Shown: piece by piece, positions 3,814 through 16,216 of the stretch
Layout of the letters: every line of letters starts with the position of its first letter
Numbering within the stretch: position 1 is the stretch's first letter
Virus record (IMG/VR): IMGVR_UViG_3300009164_000039
From: a virus
Length of the DNA stretch: 64,000 bases
Strand: one strand, 5' to 3'
Notes under the pieces: model-generated
What the model was told of the DNA's origin: nothing
Seen by the model: the letters and a program-made list of their open reading frames with translations, nothing else
Databases searched by the model: none
Program-made: the position numbers and the translations under genes

Positions 3814-4371
3814 TTAGGCAGTGTACCGGTAGTTGACCATGATTCCCCAGCTTTCTTGCTGGCGAATATCGCTGGTGTCTGCATCAAAGTTCACTGCATG
3901 CAGGCTAGCACCGTTGCCTAAATGGAACTTGGCCACAGGATCTTTGCGTGATGCAATGAACTCTCGCACTTGTTCTTCTGTAGGAGGTGCATCAAAATGC
4001 TTGCGCAGACTAGGTACAGGGCTCAATGTGTAGAAGTTTTGCACACCTTGTGCGCTGAAATGTCCCACAGCTTCTTTCAATGCTCTAGCACCCACACCCA
4101 ACAAGGCATCAGGTAGTCGAAAGATTGTGTAAAACATGGCAGTGAGACCTTCATCTTTGCTGTCCACAAAGATACCTTTCATGCTTTGCACTAGATCGTC
4201 ACCCACACGTGTGCAAATCATGCATTGATTTTTATCTTCTTCTTCATACATCAGCACAGTGCGTGTGCCCACAGTACGTGTTTCCTTATCAATAGTTGGA
4301 TGCACAGGGTCATGTGCAATTAGCTCTAACCAAGAGCGATCAAATTTTTCAGAGTTGGATGGAATAATCAT
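3814..4371 (-). CDS. Malonyl-CoA decarboxylase catalytic (C-terminal, GNAT-fold) domain, stand-alone
   Basis: Motifs AMFYTI, FYTLSPVP and DPVAKFHLGNGASLHAVNFDAD...WGIMVNYRY match MCD signatures. The start at 4371 follows an AAGGA SD and a TAAATA promoter; the ORF-track start at 4413 overlaps a terminator. Confidence 0.85.
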   Translation of the reverse strand: MIIPSNSEKFDRSWLELIAHDPVHPTIDKETRTVGTRTVLMYEEEDKNQCMICTRVGDDLVQSMKGIFVDSKDEGLTAMFYTIFRLPDALLGVGARALKEAVGHFSAQGVQNFYTLSPVPSLRKHFDAPPTEEQVREFIASRKDPVAKFHLGNGASLHAVNFDADTSDIRQQESWGIMVNYRYTA

Positions 4372-4522: not shown

Positions 4523-4614
4523 TGGCGGAAGACGGAGGAGTCGAACCCCATCCCTGTTAAGAGAACCTGGTTTTCAAGGCCAGTCGCAGGACCAACCCCG
4601 CTGCATCATCTTCC
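4523..4614 (-). tRNA. tRNA-Ser(UGA)
   Basis: Cloverleaf with long variable arm, loop CT-TGA-AA, CCA. Confidence 0.9.
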
Positions 4615-4857: not shown

Positions 4858-5742
4858 GGAGGACTGAGAATACATCTCTCCCATAAGCACCTCAAGCATT
4901 ATTACTAGCCTTGCGAGCCAGCTTTCTCTTGACTTCCACTAGGGTCCTTGCGGATCTCCCAGTCTGCTTACAGCATCGCCGTTTTTAACGTCAGGCAGTA
5001 GACGTGTCATCATATGCTATTCTGCGGATTCCATTCCGTTAGCCTTGCGAGCTATTCAGGTGCGCTAACACCTTACGAACCCCCCTCCACAAACTAATGT
5101 CACCTTGCGAGCTTCATTAGACTTGATTCACTTGCGTGTCAAGTATTAGATACTTTTCACATATGACCGAGGCAGTCTTTGCGTTTTTGTAATGATAGTC
5201 AGGATTTGAACCCGACTGCATCCAGCTTAAAAGGCTAGCGTTCAACCATTGAACTTTATCAACCTACCGTGATGAGCTACCTCTGTTGCTACATAATCTT
5301 TTGGACTACATAATACAACTCACCACATACCTTTCCTCTTGCGGAGTAATCAGTGATGTTTCACGACCAGTGTCCTGCATTGCTACAGTCCACCACCCAT
5401 TAACATTGCACACGAGCCCTTGGGTGCAAACCCTCGAACCAATGCACTACCCTTTCTCATACCAGCTGACTGATTGGTTTTGTTGGGAAGTCAGCACCAC
5501 CTGTTACTTTTCATGCACCCTGGTTCCCTTGCAGGCCAGTCGACGCACATTCTTTCCCCAACATCAGCTTTGCTGTTACAACCACCGGTCTTATCAGTGA
5601 TCGCTACCTCGCGATAGTGAGCAGGCTTGTTTACATGAACCATTGCTGGCGCAGGAGTGTAGGACTCATCTGCTTTGGGTGGGTCACCCCACTTATTCTT
5701 CGTACACTAGCAAGCTAGCATACAGGACAATAAACTGCCCCG
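4857..5742 (-). ncRNA. Large ornate structured RNA, GOLLD-like
   Basis: ~0.9 kb with no credible sense ORF; six C-GCAA-G hairpin loops (4910, 4947, 5044, 5104, 5131, 5338) plus further GNRA loops; inside a phage tRNA cluster; own consensus promoter; embedded tRNA-like domain. Family assignment is by resemblance, not a covariance-model search. Confidence 0.7.
5193..5261 (-). tRNA. tRNA-Lys(UUU)-like domain embedded in the GOLLD-like RNA (no CCA)
   Basis: D arm gttc/gaac, anticodon arm ctagc-CTTTTAA-gctgg, T arm tcggg-TTCAAAT-cctga, short acceptor tgata/tatca, no 3' CCA. Confidence 0.75.
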
Positions 5743-7698: not shown

Positions 7699-7918
7699 TT
7701 GAGAGCCTACGCCGCATTTATCGTAGATTTATTCAGGACTTACCGGCCGCCTAGCCTGACCTCGAGCACGATGGATATCACTTGGGATCCGTCCAGCGTA
7801 GTCTCCTTTACAGACCTCCGCAGTTGCCCGCGGGTGGGAGTTGAACCCATTTGCCTTTTACTGTTTTGGTCCTTCGAAGAAACCTCATTAGCGTGACTGT
7901 ACTTGCTGACACTCTCAA
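7699..7918 (-). ncRNA. ~220-nt stem-closed RNA containing a T-arm mimic
   Basis: Terminal IR tttgagag/ctctcaaa; internal tggg-TTCAACT-ccca T-arm; no anticodon/CCA architecture. Confidence 0.45.
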
Positions 7919-8404: not shown

Positions 8405-8480
8405 TGGTGCCCCCTGTCCGACTCGAACAGACCACCTTCTGATTACAAAACAGATGCTCTACCTGATGAGCTAAGAGGGC
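8405..8480 (-). tRNA. tRNA-Thr(UGU)
   Basis: Loop TT-TGT-AA, CCA. Confidence 0.92.
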
Positions 8481-8932: not shown

Positions 8933-9009
8933 TGGTGCCCCAGAGGAGACTCGAACTCCTAAAATTTGGCTTCTAAGACCAACACGTATACCAATTCCGT
9001 CACCGGGGC
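8933..9009 (-). tRNA. tRNA-Leu(UAG)
   Basis: ttggt-CTTAGAA-gccaa, short variable region, CCA. Confidence 0.9.
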
Positions 9010-9099
9010 AATTTGTCACAACAGATTGTTAAGGAACCATGTTCGTCTGCATGACTATGCAGTTGTTATTAGCAACACGATGTTTGCTACAGTTCCACA

Positions 9100-9127
9100 A
9101 GTATAACATCTTTTTCATTGTTGTCTA
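9100..9127 (-). promoter_or_regulatory. Possible sigma70-type promoter
   Basis: TAGACA-16 bp-TATACT. Confidence 0.45.
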
Positions 9128-9161
9128 CTAGTTTGTAAAAATATTTTTCTTCTGTTGTTTT

Positions 9162-9240
9162 TATGCACTCTAGTTGTTGCGTCCACAACCTGCCGCCTGC
9201 CGAGTCATGGTCGGGTGGGCTTGGCCTTCTAGAGTGTATA
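9162..9240 (-). ncRNA. Hairpin-closed small RNA module
   Basis: 12-bp terminal IR tatgcactctag/ctagagtgtata; interior contains AGGCGG; boundaries approximate. Confidence 0.45.
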
Positions 9241-9304
9241 GTAAAGTGTTCTACACGGATACGTACCCGCCTTTCGCCTCGCGGCTAGAGAACACTTTAC
9301 TATA
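9237..9304 (-). ncRNA. Hairpin-closed small RNA module
   Basis: Perfect 16-bp terminal IR tatagtaaagtgttct/agaacactttactata; interior contains AGGCGG. Confidence 0.5.
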
Positions 9305-9425
9305 ACTGGATTTTACACATCTGCGTTGTCGCCACAGACTTATCATCCCCAGTCCCGCCCTCATTATAGCCGATGTTTTGAGTGCCGGCAGGGTCGCGTT
9401 CCCTATACACACTTTTCATGATCCT

Positions 9426-9462
9426 AAAAACAAAAAACCCCAGGGTGTTAAGCCTAGGGTCC
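9426..9462 (-). terminator. Attenuator terminator upstream of the main tRNA operon
   Basis: accctagg-cttaacac-cctggggt followed by TTTTTGTTTTT; the 5' arm is also complementary to the leader ORF 3' end. Confidence 0.85.
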
Positions 9463-9488
9463 TTGGAGTTTGCAGTTGTTAATTTGTG

Positions 9489-9626
9489 TTAACTGTGCAT
9501 GGTCTCCTGGACCCTTGATTCCTGTGGTGTGCGATCATTACTAATCTCAGTCGCAGACCAGCTGGCCATTGGCAATGAATAGCCTAGGTTATGCTGTTTG
9601 CTAAAGAGTGAGAATGATTTACACAT
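9489..9626 (-). CDS. 45-aa attenuator leader peptide (MCKSFSLFSKQHNLGYSLPMASWSATEISNDRTPQESRVQETMHS)
   Basis: Manual translation; AAGGA SD upstream; lies between a consensus promoter and a terminator; its 3' end forms the antiterminator. Confidence 0.72.
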   Translation of the reverse strand: MCKSFSLFSKQHNLGYSLPMASWSATEISNDRTPQESRVQETMHS

Positions 9627-9674
9627 TTTGTTTACTTTTCCTTTTTTACAGGCTGCTTTTGCAACCTATGTCGT

Positions 9675-9703
9675 ATTGTATATTTATTTAGTCCTGCTGT
9701 CAA
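9675..9703 (-). promoter_or_regulatory. Sigma70-type promoter with an embedded CTAAATA late-promoter core
   Basis: TTGACA-17 bp-TACAAT; spacer gcaggaCTAAATAaata. Confidence 0.82.
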
Positions 9704-9754
9704 CCAGCTTTGGAATATTTAGTTTTTTGTTGTAAAAATACAACAAATTGAATT

Positions 9755-10013: not shown

Positions 10014-10041
10014 ATAATAGCTTGAATGTTTATTTATGTCA
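10014..10041 (-). promoter_or_regulatory. Sigma70-type promoter with overlapping ATAAATA
   Basis: TTGACA-16 bp-TATTAT. Confidence 0.65.
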
Positions 10042-10050
10042 AGCAAAAAT

Positions 10051-10839
10051 TTATGGCTTGACAACCAAAAATCCAGCGATAGCAGGGATCACTCGATTGC
10101 GTCGAGGTTGGCTGGCCATGGTGGTCATGCTGGTTTGTACTACAAATCCCACTTGTTCTACATGTGCTTGCACTTGATCTGTGCAGGTGTACAAAAATAT
10201 ATGATCATGCGATGCGGCATTGATAGCCGCACTAACAAATGCTGTACCACCCGGCCGTAGCACACGATGCAGTTGTGTCAAGAACTGTACCGGATCCTCC
10301 ACATGCTCTAGCACTTCAACACACACCAACCAATCAGTACTGGCATCCGGTGTTTGTTCTATGCTTTGCACTGTTGCCTGGTACCTAGTGGGGTTCAGTG
10401 CAGATGCAAACTCAACTGAAGCAGGACTGATGTCAATTGCATGTCCTTGTATGTTAGACCATGTTTGCAAGATCTTCCAAGAGTATGCGCCAGATCCGAC
10501 CCCAACATCTAAAAACTCAGTAGCATCAGCCATCTGTTGCACAAATTGATCTTGGAAAAAGCAAAGCTGACGATACTGGTGCGGCCATAGCCAGTGTGAT
10601 AACAACAGTCCGGGCAAGTACTCTGTCATCATGTGTTCTTTGTTTAGGTACACTGCGTCACTGACCTGTTGGTGAGTACGATTGCGATACTGTCCGGTGC
10701 GGTTGAATTCAATTTGGTACTTGATTAGTCTAGTACAAAAATTACGATAGGCAACTTGATAGGACACAGGAAAGCAATCAAATTCTTGTTTCCAAGAATC
10801 ACCAAACAGCCGATATGCTTGATCTTGATGGGAGATCAT
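10051..10839 (-). CDS. Class I SAM-dependent methyltransferase
   Basis: FLDVGVGSG motif I; EVLEHVEDP...LHRVLRPGG. Confidence 0.88.
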   Translation of the reverse strand: MISHQDQAYRLFGDSWKQEFDCFPVSYQVAYRNFCTRLIKYQIEFNRTGQYRNRTHQQVSDAVYLNKEHMMTEYLPGLLLSHWLWPHQYRQLCFFQDQFVQQMADATEFLDVGVGSGAYSWKILQTWSNIQGHAIDISPASVEFASALNPTRYQATVQSIEQTPDASTDWLVCVEVLEHVEDPVQFLTQLHRVLRPGGTAFVSAAINAASHDHIFLYTCTDQVQAHVEQVGFVVQTSMTTMASQPRRNRVIPAIAGFLVVKP

Positions 10840-11327
10840 TTAACAAAGTCCACCATTAGTATCACACGTTCGCTTGATGATTTATTAGCAGCCTGGTGTT
10901 TTTTCCTATCATCAAACAACATCATCTGCCCTTCTTCCCAATAGTAGCAGGTGTTTTTTACTTGTATAAATGCGTTGCCAGGGCAGATCAGTCCCAGATG
11001 CGATCTCCACACATTATCAGTGTAGCCTCTATGTGGATGAATCACACAGTCTGGTTCCATGATAGAAAATCCTGCTAGGTACAGGCCCGGAATGTCTTTG
11101 ATTAGTTCTCGGGTGACAGGACAATTATCCCATCCTGCTTGTTTCTGGTATTGATGTACAAGAAAATACAAGCGCCAACGCTCGTTGTGCAGTTCTTTCA
11201 TGTGCCAGAGTTCTGCTTGTTCTCTGTAGAGTAAAAACTCATCACGGATTGCTTGCCAGTTGTCTTGCAACGGCTTGAGGAACGGGTAAGCATCAATTGA
11301 TTGAAACACAGGAAGTTGATCTCTCAT
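10836..11327 (-). CDS. Aspartyl/asparaginyl beta-hydroxylase family 2OG-Fe(II) dioxygenase (LpxO-like)
   Basis: AGFSIMEPDCVIHPHRGY, RSHLGLICP, W.EG...LFDD...H.A.N.S..ERVILMVDF. Confidence 0.88.
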   Translation of the reverse strand: MRDQLPVFQSIDAYPFLKPLQDNWQAIRDEFLLYREQAELWHMKELHNERWRLYFLVHQYQKQAGWDNCPVTRELIKDIPGLYLAGFSIMEPDCVIHPHRGYTDNVWRSHLGLICPGNAFIQVKNTCYYWEEGQMMLFDDRKKHQAANKSSSERVILMVDFVK

Positions 11328-16186: not shown

Positions 16187-16216
16187 AGTATATAACAGTA
16201 GTATTTATGATGTCAA
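16187..16216 (-). promoter_or_regulatory. Promoter of gp32 (sigma70-type with embedded ATAAATA)
   Basis: TTGACA-18 bp-TATACT. Confidence 0.65.

Follow-up and report, generated by a model that had tools for sequence, protein, structure and literature searches.

A candidate ribosome-dependent transcription attenuator at the head of a tRNA gene array in a jumbo phage and its uncultured relatives

Organization of the leader element

The DNA analysed here (IMG/VR virus record IMGVR_UViG_3300009164_000039; "the window" denotes this whole stretch of 64,000 nucleotides) belongs to a jumbo phage whose nearest cultured relative, judged from the terminase (54% identity), is Pseudomonas phage PA5oct, and the sequencing runs containing it are lake and freshwater metagenomes. 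All of its 32 tRNA genes called by ARAGORN lie on the minus strand, and the main run of them is preceded by an element of about 280 bp, present in a single copy in the 64-kb window, which consists of a sigma-70-type promoter, a short leader open reading frame (ORF) and an intrinsic terminator (Table 1). An earlier note on this DNA, made from the letters alone, had interpreted the element as an attenuator in which a ribosome on a leader peptide containing all 20 amino acids decides on the transcription of the tRNA genes. From the comparison with related loci described below, we conclude that the element heading the tRNA array is probably a transcription attenuator dependent on the ribosome. We assign a probability of about 0.65 to this reading, and we further infer that translation would choose between the two folds of the element, as well as the direction and the signal of its response.

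The promoter, the 45-codon ORF followed by the terminator, and the complementary arms A and B with their inner TGCA:TGCA and GTTAA:TTAAC extensions were all found as the earlier note had described them. The minimum-energy fold pairs arm A with arm B, together with the two inner stems, in a three-tiered antiterminator hairpin (9515-9456) whose 3′ strand doubles as the 5′ arm of the terminator and whose apical stem holds the leader stop codon within its 5′ strand. Three further details held only in part: the "late" motif CTAAATA is indeed present in the promoter spacer, but deviates by one base from the [CT]ATAAATA motif before structural genes; the proposed Shine-Dalgarno (SD) sequence is there, but matches weakly and lies rather far from the start codon; and the tRNA genes do follow the terminator in the same orientation, but only after about 420 nt containing a structured RNA and a promoter-like site. 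The terminator (9464..9433, with its T-run extending to 9426) is the top-scoring terminator-like site between positions 4000 and 12500, and termination there would yield a leader RNA of about 240 nt. The whole predicted transcript is more stable than its shuffled versions (z = −3.2, with 0 of 200 shuffles as good).

Table 1. Features of the leader element and its surroundings in the window
Feature	Position	Strand	Remarks
Sigma-70-type promoter	9703..9675	−	TTGACA 9703-9698, 17-nt spacer, TACAAT 9680-9675; 11 of 12 consensus matches
Predicted 5′ stem-loop at transcript start	9649..9668	−	In single-sequence folds of the window and most relatives
Shine-Dalgarno match AAGGA	9643-9639	−	Weak; about 13 nt from the leader ATG
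Leader ORF	9626..9489	−	45 codons and TAA (9491-9489); NDRTP codons 9539-9525
Arm A	9515-9504	−	5′ strands of antiterminator stems P1 (9515-9509) and P2 (GGAG, 9507-9504); ORF codons 38-41
Inner and apical antiterminator stems	9471..9499	−	TGCA:TGCA; GTTAA 9493-9489 with TTAAC 9482-9478
Arm B	9456..9468	−	3′ strands of P2 (CTCC, 9468-9465) and P1 (GGACCCT, 9462-9456)
Intrinsic terminator	9426..9464	−	5′ arm 9464-9453, loop, 3′ arm and T-run 9444-9426; 12 pairs
Conserved structured RNA	~9412-9163	−	About 20 nt past the terminator; first feature that would be gated in the window
Promoter-like site TAGACA-16-TATACT, with TG	9127..9100	−	Consensus match only; between structured RNA and first tRNA
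tRNA-Leu(UAG)	8933..9009	−	First of 28 co-oriented downstream tRNA genes

A family of related elements

The element is shared by about 60 viral contigs, none of which is a cultured phage, and it is mainly this conservation that sets it apart from a chance arrangement. The first two homologous elements came from the flanks of terminase relatives, a pattern built on the two hairpin arms yielded 29 more viral contigs, and a back-translated pattern of the peptide core, which is blind to the arms, yielded another 36. Each of these two DNA searches serves as a check on the other: the ORF is present in all 29 contigs chosen on the arms, and all but three of those chosen on the peptide carry the three arms. 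A profile of 15 peptides retrieved 85 protein clusters at E < 1e-3, mostly of 44-52 aa, and a covariance model of the switch matched 58 loci once each with scores of 45-103 bits. One distant member from an independent assembly in ENA, whose peptide lacks the NDRTP motif, retains the promoter, ORF, arms, and the second ORF and structured RNA described below, with tRNA genes directly abutting the latter.

The three armless exceptions comprise one apparent deletion of the antiterminator and two contigs with an unrelated 70-aa gene. In the former (relative L135, ~7885-7915, oriented), the sequence spanning arms A and B is absent and the ORF continues through a residual terminator-like palindrome, which represents either a deletion mutant or an assembly artefact. 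The 70-aa protein of the other two (L143:2342-2551, minus strand, and L144:3980-4189, plus strand) starts with A-K-Q-A-G-F-M-P-S and continues with an unrelated helical sequence, and the leader may be derived from the 5′ end of such a gene.

No match to the element of the window, or to the element and peptide of a relative, was obtained at the DNA and protein levels in about 50,700 cultured-phage records, and the exact terminator string identified no relatives among viral contigs. The tRNA region of the window shares only one 53-bp match (~8424-8476) with cultured phages at the DNA level. Examination of the head of the PA5oct tRNA array (NC_071039.1:266300-267700) revealed a duplicated segment of about 80 bp, each copy carrying a TTGCAA-17-TATAAT promoter, and neither a leader ORF nor a terminator.

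Two mutually exclusive hairpins

Every member of the family folds into an antiterminator consisting of P1 (7 bp), P2 (4 bp) and the apical stem P3, with a mean energy of −24.8 kcal/mol compared to −16.8 kcal/mol for the terminator hairpin. The 5′ arm of the terminator includes the entire 3′ strand of P1, so that an RNA can adopt only one of the two folds. In an alignment fitted to the covariance model, which somewhat favours structure, P1 and P2 are paired in 99.2% of the cells and 5 of their 11 pairs change on both sides; neither 500 shuffles nor any slid register reached a comparable pairing. The covariance model was used for this alignment because MAFFT mis-registered arm A, so that RNAalifold missed the antiterminator. 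P2 occurs as GGAG:CUCC, GAAG:CUUC, UUGG:CCAA, GGG:CCC and in wobble forms, and P3 has at least 17 different sequences, each of which is still complementary. Both the complementarity and the ORF, whose absence from homologous loci the earlier note had named as contrary evidence, are thus retained, the ORF being open in all 49 distinct DNA versions.

At the final position of arm B, which is U or C, covariation was seen with the paired base in arm A and also with the one in the terminator, as predicted by selection on both alternative pairings. The base triples of arm A, arm B and terminator are G:C:G in 20 cases, A:U:A/G in 19, G:U:A in three and mismatched (in arm A) in two. The terminator itself shows compensatory pairs in relatives and is kept in all 58 loci matched by the covariance model. 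A further hairpin inside the ORF was seen in single-sequence folds, but is absent from the consensus fold and not above shuffles. With the covariance models of Rfam 15 (including T-box, leaders and small RNAs), no match came near the gathering score, the best ones in 9100-9720 having E > 2, likewise in one relative, and a match to permuted tmRNA (E = 0.85) was dismissed.

The leader ORF and its peptide

The 49 versions of the leader frame contain 42-67 codons (median 46), and the other two frames average 2.6 and 3.6 stops. The versions differ in length by multiples of three, and their indels preserve the frame. Four relatives have a +1 insertion just 5′ of arm A that is offset by a −1 deletion just 3′ of it, leading to the same TAA end, and a relative with such a pair was also found in a metatranscriptome contig. 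Different relatives read arm A in different frames, all three of which are represented (31, 14 and 4 versions), and its nucleotides hardly change, which indicates that it is constrained as RNA rather than as peptide. The stop codon, TAA in all 49 versions, is separated from the first base of arm A by 15-27 nt and from the following GGACCC by 24-34 nt; from the conserved ORF and this geometry we conclude that the ribosome is meant to traverse arm A and to stop inside the hairpin.

The N-terminal third of the ORF shows no codon-position bias (22, 21 and 23 changes), as expected for a leader and not for a folded protein, and the counts over the whole ORF are weakly coding-like, with 29, 30 and 36 changes in the core. 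This conserved core of the peptide reads AKQAGFMP..W..I..S..NDRTPE. The codons of A-K-Q-A-G-F-M-P (the first 23 nt of the core) are near-invariant even synonymously in 18 distinct versions from relatives L111-L148, and those just downstream vary freely. A toxin-antitoxin or membrane-peptide function was considered and dropped, as the peptide contains no hydrophobic stretch.

The peptide of the window contains all 20 amino acids, with 9 Ser and 2 Ala among its 45 residues, and 19 types (all except Val) occur before arm A, in agreement with the earlier note. Among 130 distinct peptides (mean length 47 aa), 98 contain all 20 amino acids, 28 contain 19 and four contain fewer, Cys being most often missing, whereas only 1.0% of 45-aa stretches of the phage's own proteins are expected to hold 20 types and 5.4% at least 19. 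The full set occurs in one of 82 spurious short ORFs, and after clustering at 50% identity, 10 of 12 peptide clusters still hold at least 19 types. Rare residues also appear to be relocated yet kept: where Cys is absent from the N-terminal segment, it is present elsewhere in 29 of 44 peptides, compared to a second Cys in 16 of the 86 peptides having one there. The corresponding p values in Fisher's test are 1.6e-7 for Cys, 5e-5 for His and 1.5e-5 for Tyr, and the effect persists after clustering at 70-80% identity (about 2e-3 for Cys and His at 70%). Relatedness inflates these numbers, but their direction is that predicted by selection and supports the view that the leader is selected for amino-acid completeness. 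Runs of cognate codons, a trait of classical attenuators, are absent from the leader; instead, the set of all 20 is found in 75% of the 130 peptides. The idea that the leader mirrors the phage's own tRNA array is weakened, as its codons are not specially matched to these tRNAs (38 of 45 are read by them, compared to 89% genome-wide).

A peptide conserved in this way may also be a gene product in its own right. The ORF would then be an ordinary small-protein gene whose ~45-aa product acts in trans, the hairpin would serve as a 3′ stabiliser, and the terminator would merely be leaky. The conservation of the core across 85 clusters and some synonymous changes in the W-S-A and N-D-R-T-P codons fit this explanation, but the C-terminal quarter is read in three frames with fixed nucleotides and a fixed stop position, and the N-terminal third evolves without codon-position bias. 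Likewise, gene callers list the leader as a hypothetical protein and the 70-aa protein in two contigs shares its AKQAGFMPS start, but neither the leader, nor the second ORF, nor the 70-aa look-alike was assigned to a family in searches of Pfam and PHROGs. In addition, the strand-sharing design and the three-way covariation would be superfluous for a plain terminator, and neither the composition of all 20 amino acids nor the relocated rare residues have an obvious reason in a folded 45-mer. We regard this explanation as unlikely, while placing it first among the alternatives.

By the time a translating ribosome arrives at arm A or the stop codon, the core would occupy the exit tunnel. It could act there as an arrest peptide, halting the ribosome at or beyond DRTP, or on the stop codon, upon one specific signal instead of gauging the general supply of tRNAs, and the RNA switch would turn such a stall into read-through or termination. 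If the P site holds the codon following D-R, arm A begins at +15 in 27 of 48 versions and no nearer than +15 in 43 of 48, which would suit a stall that keeps arm A just clear of the ribosome; in the window, it is the Thr33 codon that places arm A at +15, as the earlier note had calculated. Pro follows D-R-T in 36 of the 48 versions, with L, S, G, T or Q in its place in the other 12. The distance varies from +11 to +23, and in one clade without NDRTP the promoter, ORF, arms, second ORF, structured RNA and tRNAs are all retained. Therefore, a stall at DRTP, which the earlier note had named as one possible trigger, cannot be the general mechanism. An arrest-peptide sensor also leaves the composition of all 20 amino acids unexplained; we consider it improbable and rank it behind the small-protein gene. 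Nevertheless, the conserved core suggests that the nascent chain may add an effect of its own to the attenuator.

Genes and RNAs downstream of the terminator

A co-oriented tRNA gene follows the element at a distance of 219-1100 nt (median 428) in all 54 loci with enough DNA. All 700 downstream tRNA genes are on the same strand as the element and none is on the opposite one, while tRNA genes within 3 kb upstream occur in only 15 loci, indicating that the element marks the head of the array. A conserved second gene of about 53 codons with a good SD sequence occurs in about 30 of 50 distinct relatives, where it starts 18-22 nt past the terminator and encodes the motif H-T-L-T-P-E-Q .. K-L-I .. 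K-x-E-R-A (e.g., L081:6315-6473, L023:16108-16266 and L151:1699-1857); it is absent in the window. Because there is no room for a promoter in front of this gene, it can be expressed only by read-through, and the terminator should thus be conditional or at least leaky.

The structured RNA was found between the terminator and the first tRNA gene in 44 of 47 relatives with enough DNA. Its first two hairpins covary, the RNA has z scores of −3.1 and −4.4, and it is characterized by shared motifs, a long variable hairpin and a closing ACACAC/GUGUGU hairpin (e.g., L084:11740-11925 and L151:1865-2045). In some loci, a tRNA gene abuts it directly. Comparison of the copies of the window and of one relative with Rfam gave no family match. 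Sigma-70 promoters in front of the first tRNA gene were scored in 45 relatives, of which 15 have a strong one, about 10 (counting the window with its site at 9127..9100) a fair one and about 20 none that is credible. This variation implies that the tRNA genes depend wholly on the switch in some phages and partly in others. The earlier claim that the terminator gates a tRNA operon therefore stands as far as the position of the tRNA genes is concerned, but needs to be amended in that the structured RNA would be gated first and that an additional promoter-like site is present in the window.

Some other features of the tRNA region of the window were recorded. A GOLLD RNA is located inside the tRNA cluster at 4861-5326 on the minus strand (201 bits, with a gathering score of 150) and contains a tRNA-like match at 5190-5263. 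Between two tRNA genes, at 4527-4614 on the minus strand, there is a tRNA-Sec-like Rfam match below threshold (36.6 bits), for which ARAGORN made no call; it probably represents a tRNA with a long arm, for example tRNA-Ser. Two protein genes (262 and 163 aa) are inserted among the tRNA genes at 10051-11327 on the minus strand; the 163-aa protein weakly matches phrog_25472, and a pattern search found no close relatives of either in viral contigs.

Promoter conservation and transcript data

A promoter scoring 10-12 of 12 is present at the same place in all 47 distinct relatives, most of which also carry one-off variants of the late-like motif in its spacer. Apart from eleven relatives discussed below, it is followed by a 5′ untranslated region of 40-60 nt with a 5′ hairpin. 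Elsewhere in the window, the [CT]ATAAATA motif, which resembles T4 late promoters, lies 27-37 nt before several large structural genes (56328, 48705, 44602, 35044 and 3793 (−)). It also occurs at 10038 and 16209 inside the spacers of sigma-70-like promoters (10042..10014 and near 16209), and promoters of this composite kind are possibly dual early/late promoters.

A lake metatranscriptome contains contigs identical (0 mismatches) to 9498-9656, 9360-9510 and 9005-9176, and a contig from a second study also ends at 9656. The terminator is bridged by the contig covering 9360-9510 and by a contig of a relative from a third run, spanning 9388-9560. These contigs are too shallow to define ends or levels, and parts not covered by them are uninformative; they fit, weakly, a start near the predicted promoter and some read-through.

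Proposed mechanism and its evaluation

In the mechanism we propose, host RNA polymerase would start at the sigma-70-type promoter and transcribe the leader ORF of about 45 codons, the last 8-9 of which form arm A of the P1-P2-P3 hairpin. If a ribosome occupies arm A or the stop codon as arm B emerges, arms A and B could not pair, and the terminator would form and release the leader RNA. A ribosome at the stop codon would cover roughly −15 to +15 nt, leaving GGACCC exposed for the terminator. If no ribosome is present there, either because translation has not begun or because it is slowed at any codon, the more stable A:B hairpin would form and allow read-through into the structured RNA and then the tRNA genes, in most relatives passing the small protein gene first. 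This direction follows from the presence of only three strands, A, B and C, and no demonstrable 1:2 hairpin, an arrangement in which untranslated or slowly translated RNA should read through. A polymerase pause would probably be needed for the timing.

The whole ORF would thereby act as a timer of decoding, and since it contains all 20 amino acids, a shortage of any single charged tRNA would count by delaying the ribosome. As a tentative extension, to which we give somewhat less than even odds, the leader may be a gauge of the whole tRNA pool that measures the decoding capacity of the host and is answered by the phage with its own tRNA array and the structured RNA. Decoding capacity could fall by codon-usage mismatch, host shut-off, starvation or cleavage by defences based on anticodon nucleases. 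The output of phage tRNAs would rise when decoding is poor, and the new tRNAs would then restore termination. That the element responds to tRNA shortage or cleavage is our conjecture from this logic, while the core of the earlier proposal, a leader-peptide attenuator with mutually exclusive folds and a leader selected for all 20 amino acids at the head of a tRNA array, passed every comparative test that we ran.

Several observations weigh against this mechanism or limit its scope. The SD sequence is weak or absent in the family, and in eleven relatives (L023, L082, L095, L114, L116, L117, L121, L124, L128, L131 and L132), no more than 6-10 nt separate the end of the −10 box from the leader ATG, so that initiation there would have to occur on a nearly leaderless mRNA. 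The conserved peptide core would be superfluous in a pure timer, and the synonymous-site invariance at the 5′ end of the core suggests a constraint at the RNA level that the mechanism leaves unexplained. Consensus folds and shuffles established neither a pause site nor a 1:2-type hairpin. The leader is not enriched in codons read by the phage tRNAs, and in the window and those relatives with an intervening promoter, the tRNA genes are not gated exclusively by the switch. Moreover, the sequences are related, by which the statistics on composition and covariation overstate their independence, and the RNA contigs are assembled, shallow and possibly due to DNA carry-over.

Two further explanations have little to recommend them. 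The transcript is highly structured from end to end and part of its "coding" region is invariant at synonymous sites, as might be expected of a stable small non-coding RNA transcribed from a promoter of its own up to its own terminator, similar to the stable RNAs of the T4 tRNA cluster, in which the ORF would be incidental. In another system, a terminated leader RNA, rnTrpL, is reported to act in trans (PMC6614838). However, we consider a stable small RNA very unlikely for the phage element, because no version has an interrupted frame, frameshifts are compensated and indels preserve the frame, the stop codon holds its place in the apical stem, and the downstream gene needs read-through. Finally, a promoter-terminator recombination cassette kept for module shuffling rather than regulation, of the PeSL kind described for T4-like phages (PMC4122927), would agree with the near-identical promoters and terminators in otherwise diverged contigs and the mosaic combination of leader types and downstream modules, but is hardly credible, given that there is one copy in the window and one per locus instead of many copies between modules and that the ORF, the covariation and the fixed place before the tRNA genes would be unexplained.

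Comparison with known regulatory systems

The closest known system in terms of logic is the attenuator in the upstream ORF (uORF) of the mycobacterial whiB7 (wblC) gene, where stalling in the uORF is held to give read-through at an antiterminator/terminator pair, and loss of the start codon raises basal expression (PMC10274678). It responds to the depletion of many amino acids, tRNAs and synthetases, with hits for 18 of the 20 amino acids, and the composition of the uORF sets which amino acids are sensed, the M. smegmatis uORF containing all but Cys (PMC10274678). Both systems share a translated uORF, which in the phage is predicted, and an antiterminator/terminator pair. They are unrelated in sequence, and the whiB7 uORF is Ala-enriched and variable, whereas the phage leader appears to be selected for completeness and has only 2 Ala. 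The output also differs, being a bacterial transcription factor in the case of whiB7 and the structured RNA and tRNA array in that of the phage, which would close the loop on the very thing sensed.

In the leaders of amino-acid operons (trpL, hisL, pheL, thrL and ilvGMEDA), the position of the ribosome chooses the fold before the regulated genes. These attenuators resemble the phage element in their promoter, short ORF, strand-sharing hairpins and intrinsic terminator. They differ by runs of one to three cognate codons and a 1:2 hairpin, because of which an untranslated leader terminates, whereas the phage leader has no codon runs and three strands, is predicted to read through if untranslated, and regulates RNA genes. 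The short regulatory ORFs of the arrest peptides SecM, TnaC, MifM and the Erm leaders encode a conserved segment close to their end, the stall site frequently includes Pro, and stalling remodels the RNA downstream. SecM and TnaC carry W..(D/R)..P-type motifs, a likeness we take only as a lead. The signals of these peptides are secretion, Trp or drugs, and they act on translation or on Rho-dependent termination; the phage motif is not universal in its family. T-box riboswitches couple read-through to tRNA charging, as proposed for the phage element, but they bind one uncharged tRNA directly and without translation, and no T-box match was found in the phage element.

Implications for phage tRNA arrays

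Large phages often carry tRNA arrays, and to our knowledge hardly anything has been reported on their regulation; full-text literature searches did not turn up any description of phage tRNA genes being controlled by a leader peptide. Recent work links phage tRNAs to the escape from host defences that target tRNAs (PMC11555353).

Because of its compact size, consensus sigma-70 promoter and canonical terminator, the element can be tested in ordinary laboratory hosts or cell-free systems, and a further use might be the reporting of translation stress in general. Attention is also drawn to a conserved structured RNA, matched by no Rfam family, that would be co-regulated with the tRNAs. If the proposed mechanism is true, the tRNA genes of these phages would be under demand-driven control by translation, applying the principle of the trp operon to all 20 amino acids at once, and the element would form a self-closing supply-and-demand loop for tRNAs of a kind not described for tRNA genes.

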